Shown here: positions 28,912 through 60,938 of the stretch, piece by piece
How the letters are laid out: each line of letters opens with the position of its first letter
How positions within the stretch are numbered: position 1 is the stretch's first letter
Origin: Thermoanaerobaculia bacterium
GTDB taxonomy: Bacteria > Acidobacteriota > Thermoanaerobaculia > Multivoradales > UBA5704
Assembly (NCBI GenBank): GCA_044226625.1
Contig: JBGAGQ010000001.1
Location: forward strand, 64,001-128,000
Direction of reading: 5' to 3'
DNA: 64,000 nt
Made by a program: the position numbers and the translations under genes
The notes under the pieces: generated by a model
The model's input: only the letters and a program-made list of their open reading frames with translations
The model's database searches: none
What the model was told of the DNA's origin: nothing

Positions 28912-28986
28912 ACGAGCGCCCGACTCGATCCGGGGCGATAGACTCCGCTCCTCCAAGTCTTGAAGCGACCGGCAGCGAGGCGACCG

Positions 28987-29553
28987 ATGGACGCTCCCAA
29001 CTTTCGCGTGACGATCCACATGGTGGCGAGCCTCGACGGCTTCGTCGCCCGCAGGGACGGCAGCACCGATTGGCTCGAAACCGCCGACGAATTCGCCGAC
29101 GGCGAAACGCTCGACCCCGAATTCGTGGAGTCCTTCCTCCGCTCGATCGACTGCTACGTCATGGGCTCGCGGACCTACGAGACCGCCTTGGGCTTCGAAG
29201 CGAAGGGGTACGGCTGGGCCTACGGCGACAAGCCCGTCTTCGTCCTCACCCACCGCGACCTGCCGCGGACCCGTGAGACCATCGAATTTCACGCCGGCGA
29301 TCTCGCCTCGTTCGTCAACGACCGCCTCCGCCTCGCCTACCGCTCCGTCTGGTTCGTCGGCGGAGGAGCCCTCTCCGCCGACTGTCTCCGCTCCGGCCTC
29401 GCCGACGAAGTCCGCTACTCGATCGTGCCGATCCTGATCGGCGACGGAATCCCCTTCTTCGACCGCCTCAACCGGGACGTCCCCCTCCACCTCGCCGAAG
29501 TCAAAGCCTACAAAAGCGGCATGGTCGGGCTGCGGTATGAGGTCCGGCGGTAG
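28987..29553 (+). CDS. dihydrofolate reductase/RibD C-terminal family protein
   Basis: SLDGFVA, MGSRTYE, VGGG, PILIGDGIPFF. Confidence 0.9.
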   Translation: MDAPNFRVTIHMVASLDGFVARRDGSTDWLETADEFADGETLDPEFVESFLRSIDCYVMGSRTYETALGFEAKGYGWAYGDKPVFVLTHRDLPRTRETIEFHAGDLASFVNDRLRLAYRSVWFVGGGALSADCLRSGLADEVRYSIVPILIGDGIPFFDRLNRDVPLHLAEVKAYKSGMVGLRYEVRR

Positions 29554-29796
29554 GAAGCAAGGGTCAGATCAAAAAAAGCAGGGCGACGATAGGGGCTTCC
29601 CGCGCGTTTGCCGCGGGTGACTGTATGGGATCAAGCGACGCTCAGGCTCCCAGGCACGGCGCCGTGTCGACTCCTTCTCTGCTTCTATCGCATATACTCT
29701 GCGGGTCGCCCCACCTATCCAGCATCAACCCGTCGCCGCAGATCCCTGCGCTGGCGTTCGCAGGAGTTTTTATCTCCAACCCCGGGGAGAAAGCGC

Positions 29797-30546
29797 TTGA
29801 AATTAAAAGATATAGGAGGCCACATCGTATCGGGCGTGATCGGAACGGCGATCGGCTACTTCATCACGCAAATTACATCGAAAGACATCGGGCAGGTCGT
29901 GGCTGCACTTTGCCTGACCTTGGTCATCGGTCTGATCGCGCTCGCCGCCGGGAAGGGAGCCTCGCAAACCACCGAGATGCTGAACATGATGCGAAGTCAG
30001 GCTCCGCAGATCGCAATCTATTGGTCGACCTCCTTGGAGCGAGCCGAGATTTACGAGGCATCCTTCAAACTGATCAATGAGGCGAAAGAAAGCATCAGGA
30101 TCGTGAGCTTCCACCGGAGTGAATACATTCGTTCTTCTTCCCGGGATTCCTACTTCGACCGCCTCGAAGAGATCCTGCAACAGAAACAAGCCAGAAATCA
30201 GAGATTCTTGTACCAGAGAATTTTCCAGGTTCCGGACGAAACCTCGGAGCCTTCGGAATCGCTGCTGGGAAAGCGCGAGTTTTCACACTACGAGAAATTG
30301 AAGGCCCTGAGCGTCAAAGGATTCCGCGCTCCGACCAAGATCCGCTTCTCGATCAGCAGCGCCAAGGTCAACACGTCCATGATCGTCGTAGACGGACGTG
30401 CGGCATTGATCGGCATTCTCCAAGCGACCGAAAGCGGGCTGATTCTTTCCATGGCCATCGAGATCTCGGACCAGACCGGACGATTGATCGAGCCGTTCAC
30501 CGAGCTTCTTGACTCGATCGAGAGAGAAGCCAGAGCGCTTCCTTGA
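29797..30546 (+). CDS. hypothetical protein, 2 TM + PLD/TrmB-like domain without catalytic HKD
   Basis: TTG start after GGGGAG; LINEAKESIRIVS and TSMIVVDGRAALIG; visibly more AT-rich than the flanks. Confidence 0.6.
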   Translation: MKLKDIGGHIVSGVIGTAIGYFITQITSKDIGQVVAALCLTLVIGLIALAAGKGASQTTEMLNMMRSQAPQIAIYWSTSLERAEIYEASFKLINEAKESIRIVSFHRSEYIRSSSRDSYFDRLEEILQQKQARNQRFLYQRIFQVPDETSEPSESLLGKREFSHYEKLKALSVKGFRAPTKIRFSISSAKVNTSMIVVDGRAALIGILQATESGLILSMAIEISDQTGRLIEPFTELLDSIEREARALP

Positions 30547-30804
30547 GCGAGACAAGCGATCGCTCCTCAGCGGGCGATCCCCCGGCGCAACGGCGAGGAC
30601 TCTCGGATCCCAACAAGCGCAGGTTCGAGAAATCGAGGGGACGGGCCGAGCTCTAAGGCCATCCCGATCGATGAATTAAACGCTGTCAAGAATCCTTCCA
30701 CGAAAGCGAATGCCCTTTGTGCGAGGGATTCACCCTCGCGGCTTCGCGAGCGATGTAGCGGCTTCTAGAGCCGGCTCCACGCTGGAACGCAAGGAAGGAA
30801 TCGT

Positions 30805-31074
30805 ATGGCTATCGCCGGCCGGAATCTCACCCTTCATCAGATCGAGAGCGAGCTCAACGAGCGCCTCGATCGCACGTTGGCAGAACCCTCGTCGATTTCA
30901 CCCGCCGAGATCCAGGAAAGGGTCCAACGAGCGGCTCGGGATCTGGGGCTGGATGCCGAGACAAGAGTCGAATTTCGCTTCGAACGGAGCACTTCGACGA
31001 GTGGCGGTGAAGTCGCACGTCAGGCGCCCAAGACGGTCGTCGTCGTGGTCGTCGTGGTCGTCGTCGTAAGGTAG
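30805..31074 (+). CDS. 89-aa protein with C-terminal poly-valine (V11) tract
   Basis: AAGGAAGG RBS, ATG, mixed Val codons (GTC/GTG/GTA), terminator directly downstream. Confidence 0.7.
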   Translation: MAIAGRNLTLHQIESELNERLDRTLAEPSSISPAEIQERVQRAARDLGLDAETRVEFRFERSTSTSGGEVARQAPKTVVVVVVVVVVVR

Positions 31075-31087
31075 GAGGAGCTCGTGC

Positions 31088-31120
31088 GAGGGCCTCGGCG
31101 TCGGCCGAGCGCCCTCTTTC
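31088..31120 (+). terminator. terminator-like hairpin
   Basis: GAGGGCCTCGGC-gtcg-GCCGAG(C)GCCCTC followed by TTTC. Confidence 0.6.
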
Positions 31121-31400
31121 AGAAGCGCTCGAGCGGAACCACCCGATGGACTCAATTCGCGGAGCTCGGCCCTCGCCGCCCCAGTCGATCGACGCCGTCG
31201 CCTACAAACCGGCTCGCTGACGCTTCAATCGAGCCCACTCGAGGTCCTCAGGATCCGGCTCCGTGGGGGACACGATCGGCAAAGGTTCGAGGCGGATCCG
31301 TTCCTCCTCCCACCTGCCGAACCGTCAAGACTCAACCGACCCCGGCAAAGCAACTTTCCGAGCTCGAAAACCGTCCCCGAAGGCGCATTTCCGTAGGAAG

Positions 31401-31505
31401 ATCCTGGAAGTCGCTTCTCAGCATGGGAAATCGCCTCCCGGGTCGGCGAGCCTCTTCCTGTGGCAAGAGGGCGCTTCCTGGGCTGGGAAGTCACTTCCTG
31501 GGCTC
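31401..31505. repeat. degenerate 20-bp tandem repeat, about 5 units
   Basis: CTTCCTG-like ends at 31420/31440/31460/31480/31500; best unit GGCTGGGAAGTCACTTCCTG. Confidence 0.55.
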
Positions 31506-31610
31506 GCACCACCCCGACGAGTCGCGGAAGCCCCTTGCGGTGGCGCTACGCCGCGATCTAGGCCCGCCCGAGCCTCCCAGGATCGTCCCACGGACCCGGC
31601 GTCCCCATTT

Positions 31611-31952
31611 TCAGGCCCGCGGGTCGAATCCGAAGACGCGTAGCTCCTGCTCGCATCGGCAGGCTTTCGCAATCCGCGCCGCCCAGGCGACGGCTTCTGC
31701 GCGCGAGTGCAGCTCGAACACGGCAAAGCCGCCGTTGAGCGGCGGCGCCCAGGGGTACCCCCCCTCGGCGACCGAACCGTCGCCGGAGACGAGCACGGGC
31801 GGCACGGCTTCGTCGATTCCGCCGGCGAAGACGTAGACGCCCGCAGCCTTCGCCTCTTCGACCACGGCGGCCGCATCGTTCCCCACCGATTCCAACTCGC
31901 CTTCGGGAACGACCATTGCCGCGCTGGGGAAGGAGATCAGGTATTTGGCCAT
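31611..31952 (-). CDS. YciI/DGPF family protein
   Basis: KAAGVYVFAGG, EGGYP, LNGGFAVFE...EAVAWA. Confidence 0.85.
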   Translation of the reverse strand: MAKYLISFPSAAMVVPEGELESVGNDAAAVVEEAKAAGVYVFAGGIDEAVPPVLVSGDGSVAEGGYPWAPPLNGGFAVFELHSRAEAVAWAARIAKACRCEQELRVFGFDPRA

Positions 31953-32070
31953 GGTGTGCCTTTAGGGAGGTTGGTTGGACGATGCCTCGATGGGCCTGCA
32001 ACTGGTGAAGCGACAGGCTGAGCCTCTGCGGCTCAAAGCCCTCTCCTAGTTTGCATCATAGCGCGAAGCC

Positions 32071-32110
32071 TCGACAGTTTCCGCCGGACCCTGTACAGTC
32101 TCCTGTACGG
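32071..32110 (+). promoter_or_regulatory. yefM-yoeB promoter/operator
   Basis: TCGACA-N17-TACAGT overlapped by TGTACA (32092) and TGTACG (32104), 12 bp apart, as in the E. coli YefM operator. Confidence 0.7.
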
Positions 32111-32124
32111 AAGGAGCACCAGAG

Positions 32125-32376
32125 ATGAACACGCTCTCCTACACTCAGGCTCGGGCGCAGCTCGCAAAAACCATGGAATCGGTGTGCGATCGGCACGAGC
32201 CGGTGATCATTACCCGCAATGGTGAGGACTCCGTGGTGATGCTGTCGCTCGAGGACTTCAAGTCTCTCGAAGAGACGGCCTACCTCTTGCGCAGCCCGAA
32301 AAACGCCCGGCGCCTTCTCGATTCGATCGCCGAGCTTGAGCGGGGCGGCGGGGTCGAGCGCGAGCTGGCCGAGTGA
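32125..32376 (+). CDS. yefM: Phd/YefM antitoxin
   Basis: SYTQARAQLA...EPVIITR...SLEETAYLLRSPKNARRL. Confidence 0.95.
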   Translation: MNTLSYTQARAQLAKTMESVCDRHEPVIITRNGEDSVVMLSLEDFKSLEETAYLLRSPKNARRLLDSIAELERGGGVERELAE

Positions 32377-32627
32377 AGCTGGTCTTTTCGGAGCAGGCCT
32401 GGGAGGACTATCTCCACTGGCAAAAGACCGACCGACATCTGCTCGAGCGGGTGAACCTACTAATCCGCGAGATTCAGCGCGATCCCTTCCGCGGCCTGGG
32501 CAAGCCCGAACCGCTTCGGCATGCCCTCAAAGGGTATTGGTCGCGGCGGGTCAATGACGAGCACCGGATCGTCTATCGCATGGAGGGTGATTCCGTGCTC
32601 ATCGCCCAGGTGCGCTACCACTACTGA
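32373..32627 (+). CDS. yoeB: Txe/YoeB toxin
   Basis: AWEDYLHWQ, GKPEPL, WSRR..EHRIVY, RYHY; GTGA overlap with yefM. Confidence 0.95.
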   Translation: MKLVFSEQAWEDYLHWQKTDRHLLERVNLLIREIQRDPFRGLGKPEPLRHALKGYWSRRVNDEHRIVYRMEGDSVLIAQVRYHY

Positions 32628-32759
32628 TCGGGCACGAACGACCGCTGGACCAGCCTCCGCGACATCGCTGCGACGGATATCACTTCCGTTTCCTGTGCGG
32701 GCTCCGCCCCTACTTCGCTGGCAGACAGCTCGGCGAGCCCGGGGAGAGCCCGCTTTCGA

Positions 32760-33893
32760 TTACCGCAACATACTCCGCGCAATCACCAGCCGCTGCATCT
32801 CGCTGGTCCCTTCGTAGATCGTGGTCACGCGTACGTCTCGATACAGCCGGGAGATCTCGTAGTCGGCGTGGAAGCCGTTGCCGCCGTGAATTTGGAGGCT
32901 TTCGGCGCAGGCTCGGTTCGCGGCTTCGGAGGCGTAGAGCTTGGCTTGGGCGGCGAGGCGGCCGGCTTCGTTTCCGTGCTCGATCGCGGCGCGGTAGGTG
33001 AGGGCGCGGGAGGCGGCGAGCTCGGTGGCGATCTGGGCGATCTTCCATTGGATCGCTTGGTGCTCGGCGATCGGACGGCCGAATTGGACGCGCTCTTTGG
33101 CGTAGGAGACCGCGAGCTCGAGGGCCCTCTGGTGGATACCGAGCGCCTGGGCGGCGATGCCCACGCGGGAGTGGTCGAGGGTCGACTTGGCGATCGCGAG
33201 GCCGCGGCCCTCTTCGCCGAGCAGGAATTCGGACGGGATGCGGCATTGATTGAAGGTGATCGCCGCCGTGCGCGAGGCGCGGAGCCCCATCTTCTCCTCG
33301 GGCTTGCCGACGCCGAAGCCCGGCGCGTCGGCCGGCACCGCGAAGGCCGAGATGCCTTTCTTGCCCGCGTTCGGGTCGGTGCGCGCGAGCACCACGTACC
33401 AGGAGGCGAAACCGGCGTTGGTGATCCACGCCTTCTCGCCGTCGAGCACCCAGGCGTCGCCGTCGCGCTTCGCGGTCGTGCGCATCGAGGAGGGGTCGGA
33501 GCCGGCGCCGGGCTCGGTCAAGCCGAAGCCGCCGAGCTTGCCGCTCGCGAGGTCCGGCAGCGCGCGGCTCTTCGCCGCTTCGCCGCCGAAGGTCTGGATC
33601 GGCCAGGCGCAGACGGAGTTGGTGACGCTCATGGTCACGGCAACCGAAGGGCAGACGCGCGCCAGCTCTTCCACCGCGATCGCGTAGGTGAGCACGTCGG
33701 CGCCCGCGCCGCCGTAGCTTTCGGGGATCATCATGCCGAGCAGGCCGAGCTCGGCCATCTCGGCCATCACGTCGCTCGGGAACTCGTGGTCGCGGTCGCG
33801 CTGGTCCACGCCCGGCCGGATTCGCTCCTCGGCGAATCGGCGCACCTGCTCGCGCAGCAGCTCCTGGTCTTCCGAGAGGCCGAAGTCGATCAT
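32760..33893 (-). CDS. acyl-CoA dehydrogenase
   Basis: LTEPGAGSD, KAWITN, IHGGNG, IYEGTSE; ATG 33893 overlaps the upstream stop. Confidence 0.93.
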   Translation of the reverse strand: MIDFGLSEDQELLREQVRRFAEERIRPGVDQRDRDHEFPSDVMAEMAELGLLGMMIPESYGGAGADVLTYAIAVEELARVCPSVAVTMSVTNSVCAWPIQTFGGEAAKSRALPDLASGKLGGFGLTEPGAGSDPSSMRTTAKRDGDAWVLDGEKAWITNAGFASWYVVLARTDPNAGKKGISAFAVPADAPGFGVGKPEEKMGLRASRTAAITFNQCRIPSEFLLGEEGRGLAIAKSTLDHSRVGIAAQALGIHQRALELAVSYAKERVQFGRPIAEHQAIQWKIAQIATELAASRALTYRAAIEHGNEAGRLAAQAKLYASEAANRACAESLQIHGGNGFHADYEISRLYRDVRVTTIYEGTSEMQRLVIARSMLR

Positions 33894-35035
33894 GCCTTGT
33901 TGATCACCCAATCCGCGATCACCATCTTCTGGATCTCGCTCGTGCCCTCGTAGATCTCGGTGATCCGGGCGTCGCGGAAGTAGCGCTCGACGTTGTATTC
34001 CTTGGTGTAGCCGTAACCGCCGTGGATCTGGAGCGCCTTGTTGGTCACCCGCTGCGCCATCTCGGCCGAGAACAGCTTGGCCTGCGCGGCCTCGAGCGTG
34101 AACCGCTTCTGGTTCTCCTTCGCCCACGCGGCTTTCCAGACCAGCAGGCGCGCGGCGTCGAGCTCGGTCGCCATGTCGGCGAGGTAGAACTGGATCGCCT
34201 GGAACTCCGAGATCGCCTGGCCGAACTGCTTGCGCTGCTGGGCGTAGGCGACCGCCTCTTCGAACGCCCCCTGGGCGATACCCACCGCCTGCGCGGCGAT
34301 GCCGATCCGGCCGCCGTCGAGCGTCGCCATGGCGATCTTGAAGCCGTCGCCCTCTTCACCCAGCCGGTTCGCCGCCGGGATCCGCAGGTCCTGGAACGCC
34401 AGCTCCGTGGTACCCGAGGCGTTCACGCCGAGCTTGAACTCGTGGGTGCCGTGGCTGTAGCCGGGGGTGTCGGTCGGCACGATGAAGCAGGTGATCCCCT
34501 TGTGCTTCTTCGCGAGGTCGACGCTCGCGAAGACGAGCGCGATGTCGGCGTCGGTGCCGTTGGTGATGAAGACTTTGTTGCCGTTCAGGACGTACGAGTC
34601 GCCGTCTTTCCGCGCGGTGGACAGCAGCCCGCCGGCGTCGCTCCCCGCGCCCGGCTCGGTGAGCGCGAAGCAGCCGAGCTTCTGGCCCGCGGCGAGGGGG
34701 GTGAGGAACTCCTTCTTCTGCGCCTCGGTGCCGAATTTCAAGAGCGGATCGCAGACAAGGGAGTTGTTGACCGAGAGGATGACGCCCGAGGTGGCGCAGA
34801 CGCGGCTGATTTCTTCGATCACGAGCGTGTAGGCGATCGTGTCCATGCCGGCGCCGCCGTACTCCTCGGGCACCGCGACGCCGCCCAGGCCCAGCTCGCC
34901 CGCCTGGTCGAAGAAGCTGCGCGGGAACTCGCCCGACTCGTCGATCTCCTTGGCCCGCGGCTTGACGACCTCCTCGGCGAACCGGCGAATGTTTTCACGC
35001 AGTAACTGCTGCTCCTCGGTGAGCTCGATCTTCAT
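33890..35035 (-). CDS. acyl-CoA dehydrogenase (butyryl-CoA/short-chain type)
   Basis: FALTEPGAGSD, KVFITN, IHGGYGY, IYEGTSE. Confidence 0.95.
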   Translation of the reverse strand: MKIELTEEQQLLRENIRRFAEEVVKPRAKEIDESGEFPRSFFDQAGELGLGGVAVPEEYGGAGMDTIAYTLVIEEISRVCATSGVILSVNNSLVCDPLLKFGTEAQKKEFLTPLAAGQKLGCFALTEPGAGSDAGGLLSTARKDGDSYVLNGNKVFITNGTDADIALVFASVDLAKKHKGITCFIVPTDTPGYSHGTHEFKLGVNASGTTELAFQDLRIPAANRLGEEGDGFKIAMATLDGGRIGIAAQAVGIAQGAFEEAVAYAQQRKQFGQAISEFQAIQFYLADMATELDAARLLVWKAAWAKENQKRFTLEAAQAKLFSAEMAQRVTNKALQIHGGYGYTKEYNVERYFRDARITEIYEGTSEIQKMVIADWVINKA

Positions 35036-46627: not shown

Positions 46628-48352
46628 TCAGCGGACGGCGAACACGTCGTCCGGGATCTCGCGGCGAATCGAGGTGTCGCGCCGGATCACGTCGGCGAGC
46701 CGCGTGTGCGAGATCTGGTTCGCCCAAGCGGGCGGAAAGTAGTTGAGGTAGAAGAAGCGGTCGCCGTCCCGCAGGCGCGTGAACTGGTCGGTCAACACGC
46801 GGCGCAGCAGCTCCCCCACGAGCCCGGGGGCGACCGGCCGCTCGGCGAGCCCACCCACCCACGGATCGATTCGGTCGACCGAGCCGTACGCCTCGGCGAG
46901 GCGGGCGGTGATCGTCGGATTCCCCGGGTTGACCGAGGCGATGTCGGGCTTCGGCGCGAGGCCGAACGCCTGGCGCACCTCGTTGTAGCTCGGCAGGCCG
47001 TGGTCGCGCCCGCGCTGGATGTTGAGCGAGGCGAGGTCGAACCCGCCTTGGCCCGGCTGGCCGAACAGGAAGTTGCGGACGTCGTCGACGATGAACGGAT
47101 CGACGTCGTTGGCGCGCTGCCGCGCGGCACCGCGCAGGAACGGCTCGATGCCGCCGCCGGCCACGAGCTCGGCCGGGTTGAAGAAGGCGTCCCGCAACGG
47201 CACGCCGCCGCCCGCGAGCGGACGGAGGTGGGCATCGAGCCGCGACAGCTCCGACGTGAGCATGCTGTGGCCGAAGCGATAGGCCGCGGTCGAGAAGGTG
47301 GCCGAGATCGTCGGATCGAGGTTCGGGTGGTAGCCGGTATAGCGGCGGAGCGCGTGCTTGCCCAGCAGGGCGGGAAGGAACTCGTTGAACGTGATCGCCT
47401 GGATCTCGCCGGTCACGAGCGCTCGGGCTCGGAGGTAGATCTCGTCGCCGGACAGCGCGGCACCCGCGCGGGTGTGGCGGATCTGGTTCGCCCAGTAGTT
47501 GTGCTCGCGCACCCAGAGCGTGTGCAGCGAGGTGAGGGCCAGGTTCTCGTTCGCGCGCACGTCGCCCGCGAGGTACATCGAGGTCGGATCTTGGCCGGGG
47601 TTGCTCGCGTTCGGCATGCCGAACGTGTTGTACGGCATCATGACGCGGCCGCCCGGACCGGCCTGCATTTTGAGCCGGCCGCTGCCGTCCGTCATGCGCA
47701 GTGCCGCGGAGCGCGCCGAGTCGGAGCCGTAGACGTTCGAGGCGTCGATCCACGCGGTGATCACGTTGTCCTGCCCGCGCGGATTGCCGGCGGCGGTGCC
47801 GGTGCCGGCGGTCGCGAGCGAGCGGCAGAGCGCGATGGTCTGGGTGCCGGTCGAGTCGGGATCGAAATACGGATCGCCCGCGGGCACTTCGACGTCGAAC
47901 GGCTGGTCGCAGCCGGTGTTCGTGAGATCGAGGTCGTGGTCGACGAATTGGCCCCAGAGCCAGACGAAGTTCGACGGACCCGTAGGCGAAAGCGTCGTCG
48001 CGGGCTGGGCGACGACCAGATTGCTGATCCGGCGCGCGCTCGGCCGGTCGGCTCCCGAGGGGGCGTCGAAGCCGTCGTCGTAAGCCGGCTCCGCCACCCG
48101 GCGCAGCTCGGCGCCCGCCGCGCCCCAGCTCGGATGCGCGAGGTTGTGACCCGTGCCGTCGATCGACGAAAACTCGTGCAGAACCAGGGTGTCGAGCGGC
48201 GGGCGGGCGAGCGCCGGGGCCGCGAACGTACCGAGCAAGACGACCCAGCCGAGCAGGACCGAGCCGAGCGGCGAGAGGCTCGACCCTGCGAAGGTGGGAG
48301 TACGGAGCCGAATCCGGAGGGCGAGACCGGGAAGGTTCCGGGTCGTGGGCAT
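46628..48352 (-). CDS. exported heme peroxidase, peroxidase-cyclooxygenase (animal-type) family
   Basis: DGTGHN, WGQFVDHD, GDVRANEN, AYRFGHS, NIQRGRDHG, LRDGDRFF. Confidence 0.92.
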   Translation of the reverse strand: MPTTRNLPGLALRIRLRTPTFAGSSLSPLGSVLLGWVVLLGTFAAPALARPPLDTLVLHEFSSIDGTGHNLAHPSWGAAGAELRRVAEPAYDDGFDAPSGADRPSARRISNLVVAQPATTLSPTGPSNFVWLWGQFVDHDLDLTNTGCDQPFDVEVPAGDPYFDPDSTGTQTIALCRSLATAGTGTAAGNPRGQDNVITAWIDASNVYGSDSARSAALRMTDGSGRLKMQAGPGGRVMMPYNTFGMPNASNPGQDPTSMYLAGDVRANENLALTSLHTLWVREHNYWANQIRHTRAGAALSGDEIYLRARALVTGEIQAITFNEFLPALLGKHALRRYTGYHPNLDPTISATFSTAAYRFGHSMLTSELSRLDAHLRPLAGGGVPLRDAFFNPAELVAGGGIEPFLRGAARQRANDVDPFIVDDVRNFLFGQPGQGGFDLASLNIQRGRDHGLPSYNEVRQAFGLAPKPDIASVNPGNPTITARLAEAYGSVDRIDPWVGGLAERPVAPGLVGELLRRVLTDQFTRLRDGDRFFYLNYFPPAWANQISHTRLADVIRRDTSIRREIPDDVFAVR

Positions 48353-60700: not shown

Positions 60701-60938
60701 CGGTCCCGTTCTCTGGAATTACGTCCCGTTCTCTGGATATTCGTCCCGAATCCTGCAGGAAACGTCCCGTATTCTGAATATTCGTCCCGTACTCCACAAA
60801 TTCGTCCCGTATTCTGCGTGTACGTCCCGTACTCCGGATAAGCGTCCCGTATTCCGAATTTACGTCCCGTATTCCGAATTTACGTCCCGTATTCTGAATT
60901 TACGTCCCGTATTCTGAATTTACGTCCCGTATTCTGGA
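60701..60938. repeat. 12-unit 20-bp tandem array, consensus TACGTCCCGTATTCYGAATT
   Basis: GTCCCG core at 60703, 60723, 60743, 60764, 60784, 60804, 60824, 60844, 60864, 60884, 60904, 60924. Confidence 0.95.

Follow-up and report, generated by a model that had tools for sequence, protein, structure and literature searches.

A rare 89-residue bacterial protein ending in eleven valines and its possible self-association

The gene and its conserved tail

The DNA analyzed here (the window) is a 64,000-nucleotide stretch of a Thermoanaerobaculia bacterium genome (assembly GCA_044226625.1, contig JBGAGQ010000001.1, positions 64,001 to 128,000), and its subject is a small gene whose product ends in an unbroken run of eleven valines. 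The genome that carries the gene, G000, is 6.6 Mb in size and has a GC content of 0.677. In the translation of the open reading frame (ORF), the 89-residue protein starts with MAIAGRNL, passes through STSTSGGEVARQAPKT and ends in T-V11-R; the 89-codon frame reads MAIAGRNLTLHQIESELNERLDRTLAEPSSISPAEIQERVQRAARDLGLDAETRVEFRFERSTSTSGGEVARQAPKT, next eleven valines, an arginine, and TAG. An earlier note on this DNA had described a stand-alone protein of 89 residues with eleven terminal valines, preceded by a strong ribosome-binding site. Both descriptions agree with the ORF at 30805..31074 on the plus strand and with the Shine-Dalgarno-like box, AGGAAGGA, that lies 5 nt before its ATG. A second copy of the gene, found in genome G005 of the same genus, serves as the main reference in the following list of features.

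30721..30773, plus strand: two small leader hairpins (30721-30739 and 30759-30773), seen in the predicted fold; not conserved as DNA in G005
30792..30799, plus strand: Shine-Dalgarno-like AGGAAGGA, ending 5 nt ahead of the ATG; read from the sequence
30805..31074, plus strand: 89-residue gene including the TAG stop; from the ORF listing, the homologues P0002, P0003, P0006, P0007, and P0008, and the codon-position differences from the G005 copy
30805..30990, plus strand: conserved head, residues 1-62, with predicted helices at 10-24 and 33-46 and an amphipathic strand at 50-61 (TRVEFRFE); from alignments and AlphaFold2
30991..31035, plus strand: low-confidence linker TSTSGGEVARQAPKT, which in the homologue from G005 is shorter by 9 residues
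31036..31068, plus strand: eleven Val codons (eight GTC, two GTG, and one GTA), modelled as the second strand of a hairpin and as the contact to the next subunit
31069..31074, plus strand: terminal Arg codon and TAG stop (AGG TAG); the Arg is also present in P0002 and absent from P0003
31088..31120, plus strand: G+C-rich hairpin (31088-31116) followed by UUUC, terminator-like

The valine run exceeds chance. The six-frame translation of the whole 6.6-Mb genome contains 12 runs of at least seven valines or isoleucines. The V11 run exceeds all the others in length, and no other run stands at the end of an open frame. The other valine-frame runs that were inspected are the antisense of poly-Thr or of Asp/His repeats. 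Tandem Repeats Finder scores the run as a period-3 array (31036-31067, 10.7 copies), and DNA repeats of the (GTN)10 type are not rare in the order, being present in 59 of 300 genomes (a count that includes the unpublished genome G555). Nearly all of the 36 other runs of (GTN)≥10, located in 30 loci, are the antisense of long Asp/His- or Thr-rich genes. A single Val frame among them ends no more than 4 codons past its run; it has 29 codons and a GC content at third codon positions (GC3) of 0.14, and is not a credible gene. Among contigs from four DNA runs, those of the probable source sample carry the gene unchanged, and none displays a length variant of the valine run, although contigs cannot reveal rare variants. 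A look-up of RNA runs returned none that contains this stretch.

Two loci elsewhere in G000 show the usual origin of poly-Val frames as artefacts. At G000:C8:87661-87731 and G000:C5:95319-95389 (L069 and L060), we found two copies of a protein of the 270-residue type with a signal-like N-terminus. Each contains two runs of 9-10 threonines, and the antisense frame reads V9...V10.

A word-indexed search of 5.8 billion proteins returned P0002 as the sole homologue. It is 90 residues long and 75% identical, and its tail reads K-T-VIIVVVVVVVVV-R, i.e., VIIV9R. The second homologue, recovered from G005 in a search of 61 related genomes, has 79 residues and is 45% identical over residues 1-62. Its tail is N-T-IIIIIIII-L-I-L-stop (I8LIL), encoded by seven ATC codons followed by ATT, CTG, ATT, and CTC, and its start is preceded at a similar distance by GAGGGAG. 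A gene of the G005 type is also found on a metagenome contig, with one synonymous difference between the two copies.

Across the three close homologues, the tail is 11, 12, and 11 residues long and keeps its beta-branched aliphatic character, and the Thr that precedes it is invariant. The codons, the length of the linker, and 55% of the head differ between the gene in the window and the G005 copy. Thus, the V11R, VIIV9R, and I8LIL tails retain their length (11-12) and residue type while the codons change. Differences between the two genes are distributed 22/22/35 over codon positions 1/2/3, and the plus frame is open in both genomes. Within the run itself, the three codons other than GTC all carry third-position changes, which are silent in the Val frame only and would give Trp or His in the other frames. 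The earlier note had argued from the mixed codons for selection at the protein level rather than a neutral microsatellite; the three tails, and interruptions that are synonymous in the Val frame alone, bear that argument out. At the level of sequence, therefore, both the character and the length of the tail are conserved across the close homologues.

The head was also searched on its own, with the tail omitted to avoid circularity, using 62 positions of two sequences against 1.84 billion representatives at E ≤ 0.001. Six proteins matched: the two queries, two long repeat proteins (by fragments), and two small distant relatives, P0006 (80 residues) and P0007 (75 residues). A third distant relative, P0008 (83 residues), came from a profile search. 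All three have the head from the same Met, followed by amphipathic, Cys-containing, hairpin-like endings (...LKCKLVCTIVPPNCTL[TA]CDI... and ...VEVTITCERPAGGRLKCKLNIKITPTL, with the C-terminal segments KCKLVCTIVPPNCTL[TA]CDI... and ...CERPAGGRLKCKLNIKITPTL). Every homologue begins at this Met and comprises 75 to 90 residues, and the whole family amounts to six protein clusters in billions of sequences. A search without a length limit, and the longer proteins, revealed no fused or longer forms. In the long repeat protein P0005 (2674 residues), the match to the head is fragmentary. Two candidates were rejected: P0004, a 538-residue repeat protein that matches just 24 head positions and was set aside, and a weak match in G033 (E 0.006), which lies within a 1038-residue frame and was not recovered by the profile.

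We then evaluated how widely the gene is distributed. The head profile identified it in 2 of 300 genomes of the order, both of which belong to one genus of 8 (2 of 8). The class sample of 401 genomes yielded one match, G000 itself, and the phylum sample of 401 yielded three, including G000; the other two were weak matches inside or antisense to larger genes. No further members emerged from a scan of viral contigs or from tblastn against plasmids and phages. Nor did G000 contain a paralogue: the gene was its own only match, the next best having an E of 0.165, so that the paralogues with variable tails proposed for a check in the earlier note are absent from the genome. Taken together, these comparisons indicate a bacterial gene that is real but very rare.

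The family also appears to be new to annotation. Neither the protein nor its relatives matched a family above cut-off in Pfam, NCBIfam, PADLOC, or PHROGs; the only Pfam match, DUF5305, scored 15 bits versus a cut-off of 29. The ESM Atlas yielded a best score of 0.78, which points to unnamed clusters and serves as a lead only; for the head, it gave no usable named match. A literature search on bacterial poly-Val or poly-Ile tails and on precursor peptides, covering the literature outside most subscription journals, found no published account of such a family; what it returned dealt with protein design, polyglutamine, SP-C, or unrelated subjects. As judged from sequence, no family of this kind is annotated in the libraries searched, and the protein matches no known kind.

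Predicted fold and self-association

AlphaFold2 predicted the same topology from three sequences, with a predicted local distance difference test score (pLDDT) of 65.5, and from six, with a pLDDT of 77.5 and a predicted template modelling score (pTM) of 0.62. The predicted order is two helices (residues 10-24 and 33-46), a strand (50-61), the low-confidence linker, and a second strand (76-87), which is the poly-Val tail. Along the first strand, V/F/F take turns with R/E/R/E; in G005, the alternating sets are V/V/M/Y and K/Q/E/R. This pattern fits a sheet packed on helices. In the alignment, the distant relatives retain an amphipathic hairpin at the equivalent place.

Complex predictions with four copies of the protein scored 0.63, 0.67, and 0.76, as opposed to 0.00 for the best of three controls, with a partner pLDDT of at least 71 and a contact agreement of at least 73%. 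When the method was calibrated on pairs, 20 of 30 known homo-pairs and 1 of 23 single chains attained the mark; this calibration is only rough for four copies and a custom alignment. Residues 81-85 of one copy are predicted to pair with residues 55-59 of another. The tail (75-86) of one copy lies against strand 54-65 of the next, and that copy's strand takes the tail of a third. The four copies are predicted to form a head-to-tail chain through one continuous sheet. Of the two options offered in the earlier note, the second, an amyloid- or fibre-forming peptide, fits these models, in which the tail is a beta-strand of a small domain and the four-copy score is 0.67 versus 0.00.

On the strength of these models, we tentatively regard the protein as a small self-assembling one. 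It would be a small cytoplasmic protein without a signal peptide, in which two helices pack on a beta-hairpin. The first strand of the hairpin would be amphipathic (T-R-V-E-F-R-F-E) and the second a homopolymer of beta-branched aliphatics, 11-12 residues long. Since the poly-Val strand would be hydrophobic on both faces, a single domain could not bury it. Self-association would solve the problem of burial: the tail would pair edge-on with the amphipathic strand of the next subunit, and the outcome would be a continuous sheet, either an oligomer or an open filament, covered by helices. Triplet slippage probably created the run and made it homogeneous, as (GTC)n here and (ATC)n in the relative, while selection would have kept it to Val, Ile, or Leu and fixed its length at about 11 residues.

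A bolder formulation, which we consider doubtful, extends this model to the family. Its tiny members would use a homopolymeric, beta-branched donor strand (V11, VIIV9, or I8LIL) to link subunits into a filament or ring of cross-beta-like character in the cytoplasm, with the helical head capping the aggregation-prone sequence, so that the family, hitherto unknown, would represent a natural minimal steric-zipper module on a mobile island. What such an assembly does is a matter of guesswork: it could be a scaffold or a conditionally aggregating, membrane-perturbing accessory protein.

Several points weigh against self-assembly. The mechanistic support comes only from structure predictors run on a 6-row alignment, and such models may pair a poly-Val strand for trivial reasons. 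Foldseek found no clear neighbour or fold match (E ≥ 0.08), its best hit, at E 0.08, being the dynein outer-arm chain 7k58_N. With VIA, the best Z was 5.8 (a phage tail-sheath chain and a TamA POTRA chain), followed by contractile-injection baseplate chains, further POTRA chains, and Tctex-type dynein light chains at Z 5.0-5.5, all of them lower than what chance usually gives. With its V11 strand exposed, the protein might do no more than aggregate or undergo degradation, a conserved head with a variable tail also fits a precursor peptide, and the neighbouring genes give no functional hint. To our knowledge, long runs of Val or Ile are almost never tolerated in proteins because of aggregation. 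A run that is kept in length and kind across diverged homologues and is joined to a conserved small domain is, however, likely used rather than merely tolerated.

The nearest functional analogy that we can name, one without homology, is proSP-C. As described in one account (PMC8946693), this protein contains a natural poly-Val segment that is prone to form beta-sheet amyloid, and the BRICHOS domain, part of the same chain, handles that segment. In the protein described here, the head would similarly supply an amphipathic strand, which is predicted to pair with the poly-Val. The two differ in that the Val-rich stretch of SP-C is a transmembrane helix of about 20 residues in an animal secretory protein, whereas here 11-12 residues form the very C-terminal end of a cytoplasmic protein from a bacterium. 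In that protein, no Pfam domain, BRICHOS or other, reached its cut-off.

Other known folds were also compared. In POTRA domains and Tctex-type dynein light chains, a small sheet carries two helices, and its edge strands serve to bind partners or to dimerise. Here these modules are weak structural neighbours (Z 5.4-5.8 for TamA and BamA POTRA and 5.2 for DYNLT1, below the chance level for the library); they have another strand order, no sequence similarity, and no homopolymer strand. Run against the PDB, the family profile matched the acyl carrier protein chain 7e42_A at E 6.9e-5, with stretches resembling helix I (AEIQERVQRAARDLGL-like) and helices II-IV. We rejected this candidate: the score adds up two stretches that overlap and exclude each other, neither of them significant by itself (i-E 7.4 and 0.23); in line with the phosphopantetheine Ser, the conserved serine of the DSL motif, the six members have N, N, S, T, A, and S; and the protein has only two helices versus a four-helix bundle. 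With respect to secreted functional amyloids (curli, chaplins, and TasA), the N-terminus is polar and helical with no signal sequence, and no such Pfam families were found in the neighbourhood. The protein has no match to PF00741 of the gas-vesicle protein GvpA, and GvpA is not among its structural neighbours; a genome search for it was empty, but the control genomes gave none either.

RNA elements and the genomic island

Both hairpins that the earlier note had seen in the leader exist, but the fold of the entire leader is no better than that of shuffled sequences (z -0.56, with 55 of 200 shuffles folding equally well). The same note had placed a terminator after the gene. The hairpin past the stop is indeed strong (-31.4 kcal/mol, z -3.81, with none of 200 shuffles as good), but its U tract is merely UUUC and a scan for consensus terminators made no call there. 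The G005 copy has no equivalent hairpin past its stop, where the structure gives a z of +0.30. The 9-mer GTGCGAGGG occurs just ahead of the leader (30719-30727) and again just past the stop (31084-31092), each time as the 5' arm of a hairpin, which may be due to chance.

The gene lies within a variable island of low GC content.

29600..32700, no strand assigned: low-GC variable island containing the gene, with a RibD_C gene (28960-29553) on one side and an acyl-CoA dehydrogenase gene (32760-34127) on the other

The island spans 3.1 kb and has a GC content of 0.53-0.65, as opposed to about 0.70 in its flanks. Besides the poly-Val gene, it holds a 312-residue membrane protein without a family, a stretch of about 500 nt in which no ORF is credible, a YCII-like gene, and a YefM/YoeB pair. 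The YCII-like gene lies downstream of the poly-Val gene and is convergent with it. All five sister genomes compared have different island contents, with homology resuming exactly at the 3' end of the dehydrogenase gene.

In G005, the gene occupies the equivalent site: the orthologous dehydrogenase (81% identity) forms the end of the contig, about 2.2 kb away and in the same relative orientation, and a secreted zinc-protease-like gene lies between the two. The left flank of the G005 copy maps to a different contig of G000. Both copies form local dips in GC content, and no DNA homology was detected between the two loci beyond the conserved coding stretch. Since the genes around the two copies differ, the immediate neighbours are not conserved. 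The family is tiny and resides in a variable island.

The boundary at the dehydrogenase gene is itself variable. The interval downstream of its stop differs in every genome of the genus (32761-33156 in the window; G001:C118, G002:C33, and G003:C9), and three sister genomes carry extra partial copies of the last 100-400 nt of the gene nearby. Such a pattern is suggestive of repeated integration at the 3' end of the gene. Inside the island of the window, no duplicated dehydrogenase 3' end was found.

Some of the other island contents deserve description. At 32125-32627, a complete pair of YefM antitoxin and YoeB toxin genes with overlapping stop and start matches Pfam at E 1.5e-26 and 1.1e-37, and a 79%-identical pair occupies the same hotspot in G006. 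The co-directional ORF upstream of the poly-Val gene (29608-30546) encodes up to 312 residues with hydrophobic N-terminal segments, and its true start is probably past a terminator-like hairpin at 29745-29764. It has no family in Pfam, NCBIfam, PADLOC, or PHROGs. The ORF-free stretch past the poly-Val gene contains repeats with a 20-nt period (31390-31505), each a small GGAAG-nnn-CTTCC hairpin. Arrays like this one, often with many units, are present on at least 12 contigs of G000 and at many places in the sister genomes, including some contig ends in G001.

Two features farther away in the window were also recorded. A distinct 20-nt tandem array, GTCCCGTATTCTGGAATTAC, with 11.8 copies and a small internal palindrome, lies at 60703-60938. 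On the minus strand, 46628-48352 encodes a 574-residue protein that matches the animal haem peroxidase family nearly end to end (E 1.8e-144).

Alternative readings and their weight

The main rival to self-assembly is a membrane-active tail, which we consider unlikely. The stretch of 11-12 Val or Ile residues would insert into the cytoplasmic membrane as a short anchor or, after oligomerisation of the hairpins, as a membrane-perturbing element, and the protein would be a small toxin-like accessory or tethering factor of the mobile island. Such a stretch is the most hydrophobic possible, and K-T and R flank it in two of the three close homologues. Hydrophobic and charged residues take turns along strand 1, a pattern also seen in membrane beta-strands, and the gene is situated in a variable low-GC island beside the YefM/YoeB pair. 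However, 11-12 residues fall far below the approximately 20 generally needed for a helical span. The earlier note had called V11 short for a transmembrane helix; the hydrophobic runs of 11, 12, and 11 residues do not reach the helical span of a tail anchor (about 18-22). Furthermore, the G005 tail lacks a flanking basic residue, the last strands of the distant relatives are amphipathic rather than hydrophobic, no PADLOC or PHROGs family was matched, and the predictors put the tail within a soluble fold.

The first option of the earlier note, a precursor of a ribosomally made, post-translationally modified peptide (RiPP) of the proteusin or borosin kind, has lost ground and now seems improbable. 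Here, residues 1 to about 62-76 would form a new type of leader, and the poly-Val/Ile tail (or, in the distant relatives, the Cys/Thr-rich tails) would be a core, modified, e.g., by epimerisation or N-methylation, and released by enzymes encoded elsewhere. The conserved head with widely differing C-termini (V11R, VIIV9R, I8LIL, and the distant tails) is a real RiPP-like trait, the size is typical of long-leader precursors, and some members have Gly-Gly ahead of the tail. The Gly-Gly is nevertheless absent from G005, the gene is present in a single copy, and the tail is modelled with fair confidence inside the fold. No NHLP, Nif11, or other precursor model in Pfam or NCBIfam matched P0001, P0002, P0003, P0006, or P0007 in scans at E up to 1-10.

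The genomic context points in the same direction. As the earlier note had stated, no modifying enzyme is adjacent: none of the 25 ORFs scanned between 17 and 48 kb encodes a radical-SAM, YcaO, LanB/C/M, peptidase-ABC, or TP-methylase protein. On the 4.6-kb G005 contig, whose ORFs were read by eye without a family scan, no maturase was seen, so that maturase-like genes are missing from two contexts. The note had also proposed searching the genome for maturases. SPASM and YcaO genes do occur in the genus, in all five genomes tested, but they do so with or without the poly-Val gene. Borosin precursors are fused to an alpha-N-methyltransferase or lie beside one. The protein contains no methyltransferase domain, and a search confined to the neighbourhood turned up a single methyltransferase, a Methyltransf_11 protein 8 kb upstream. 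In proteusin-type precursors (the polytheonamide family), a Val/Ile-rich core follows a long leader and can be the main site of variation, and one genome frequently, though not necessarily, encodes several paralogues, whereas here there is no NHLP or Nif11 leader, no epimerase nearby, and no paralogue. We know of no RiPP core that is a pure homopolymer. Despite the RiPP-like trait, this absence of support weakens the precursor reading.

Another explanation to which we assign little probability is a young, drifting orphan: the head would be a real small protein, the homopolymer tail a tolerated product of slippage without a function of its own, and the gene would be heading to loss. The very patchy distribution (2 of the 300 genomes of the order, and 2 of the 8 that make up the genus), the location in a variable island, and the commonness of period-3 repeats of this type in the order (59 of 300 genomes) are all compatible with it. 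Yet three lineages at 45-75% identity keep the length and residue class of the tail and show neither frameshift nor truncation, the changes that interrupt the repeat are silent, and none of the 36 other (GTN)≥10 runs in 30 loci forms the end of a credible Val-frame ORF.

A Val/Ile-sensing leader peptide, in which ribosome stalling would control the hairpin past the stop, is largely refuted and highly improbable. The ivbL and ilvL leader peptides of Escherichia coli are about 30 codons long, have no conserved folded part, and stand ahead of ilv operons, and attenuators of this type have alternative terminator and antiterminator structures. The gene described here resembles them in that a small ORF has a run of Val, Ile, or Leu codons toward its end and is followed by an RNA hairpin; the 11 Val codons end 2 codons ahead of the stop, and the strong hairpin begins 13 nt past it. 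In contrast to the leader peptides, its 89 codons include a conserved head that is predicted to fold. Neither genome has a co-directional gene downstream: in the window, the approximately 500 nt without a credible ORF are followed by the convergent YCII-like gene, and in G005, which lacks the hairpin and has no significant structure past the stop, the next gene is also convergent.

The reading that a real gene lies on the other strand had to be taken seriously, since GTC and ATC are both Asp codons there (the repeat would encode DDDHDDHDDD), an 85-residue antisense ORF exists at 30898..31155, and similar repeats in the 30 loci of other genomes are usually the antisense of long Asp/His- or Thr-rich genes, but it retains almost no probability, because the antisense frames of the head contain stops in one or both genomes, no antisense ORF of at least 50 residues covers the G005 gene, most differences fall at the sense third position, i.e., the antisense first, and six independent predicted proteins align from the same sense-frame Met.

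Given its rarity (six clusters, and two genomes of one genus among those searched), the ecological weight of the family is probably small. If the tail were cut off and modified, the family would constitute a new kind of leader for very hydrophobic peptides. If the chaining of subunits through the tail strand holds true, the protein would reveal how a pure poly-Val beta-strand is kept in check and put to use in a cell, and it would offer protein engineers a very small natural assembly tag.

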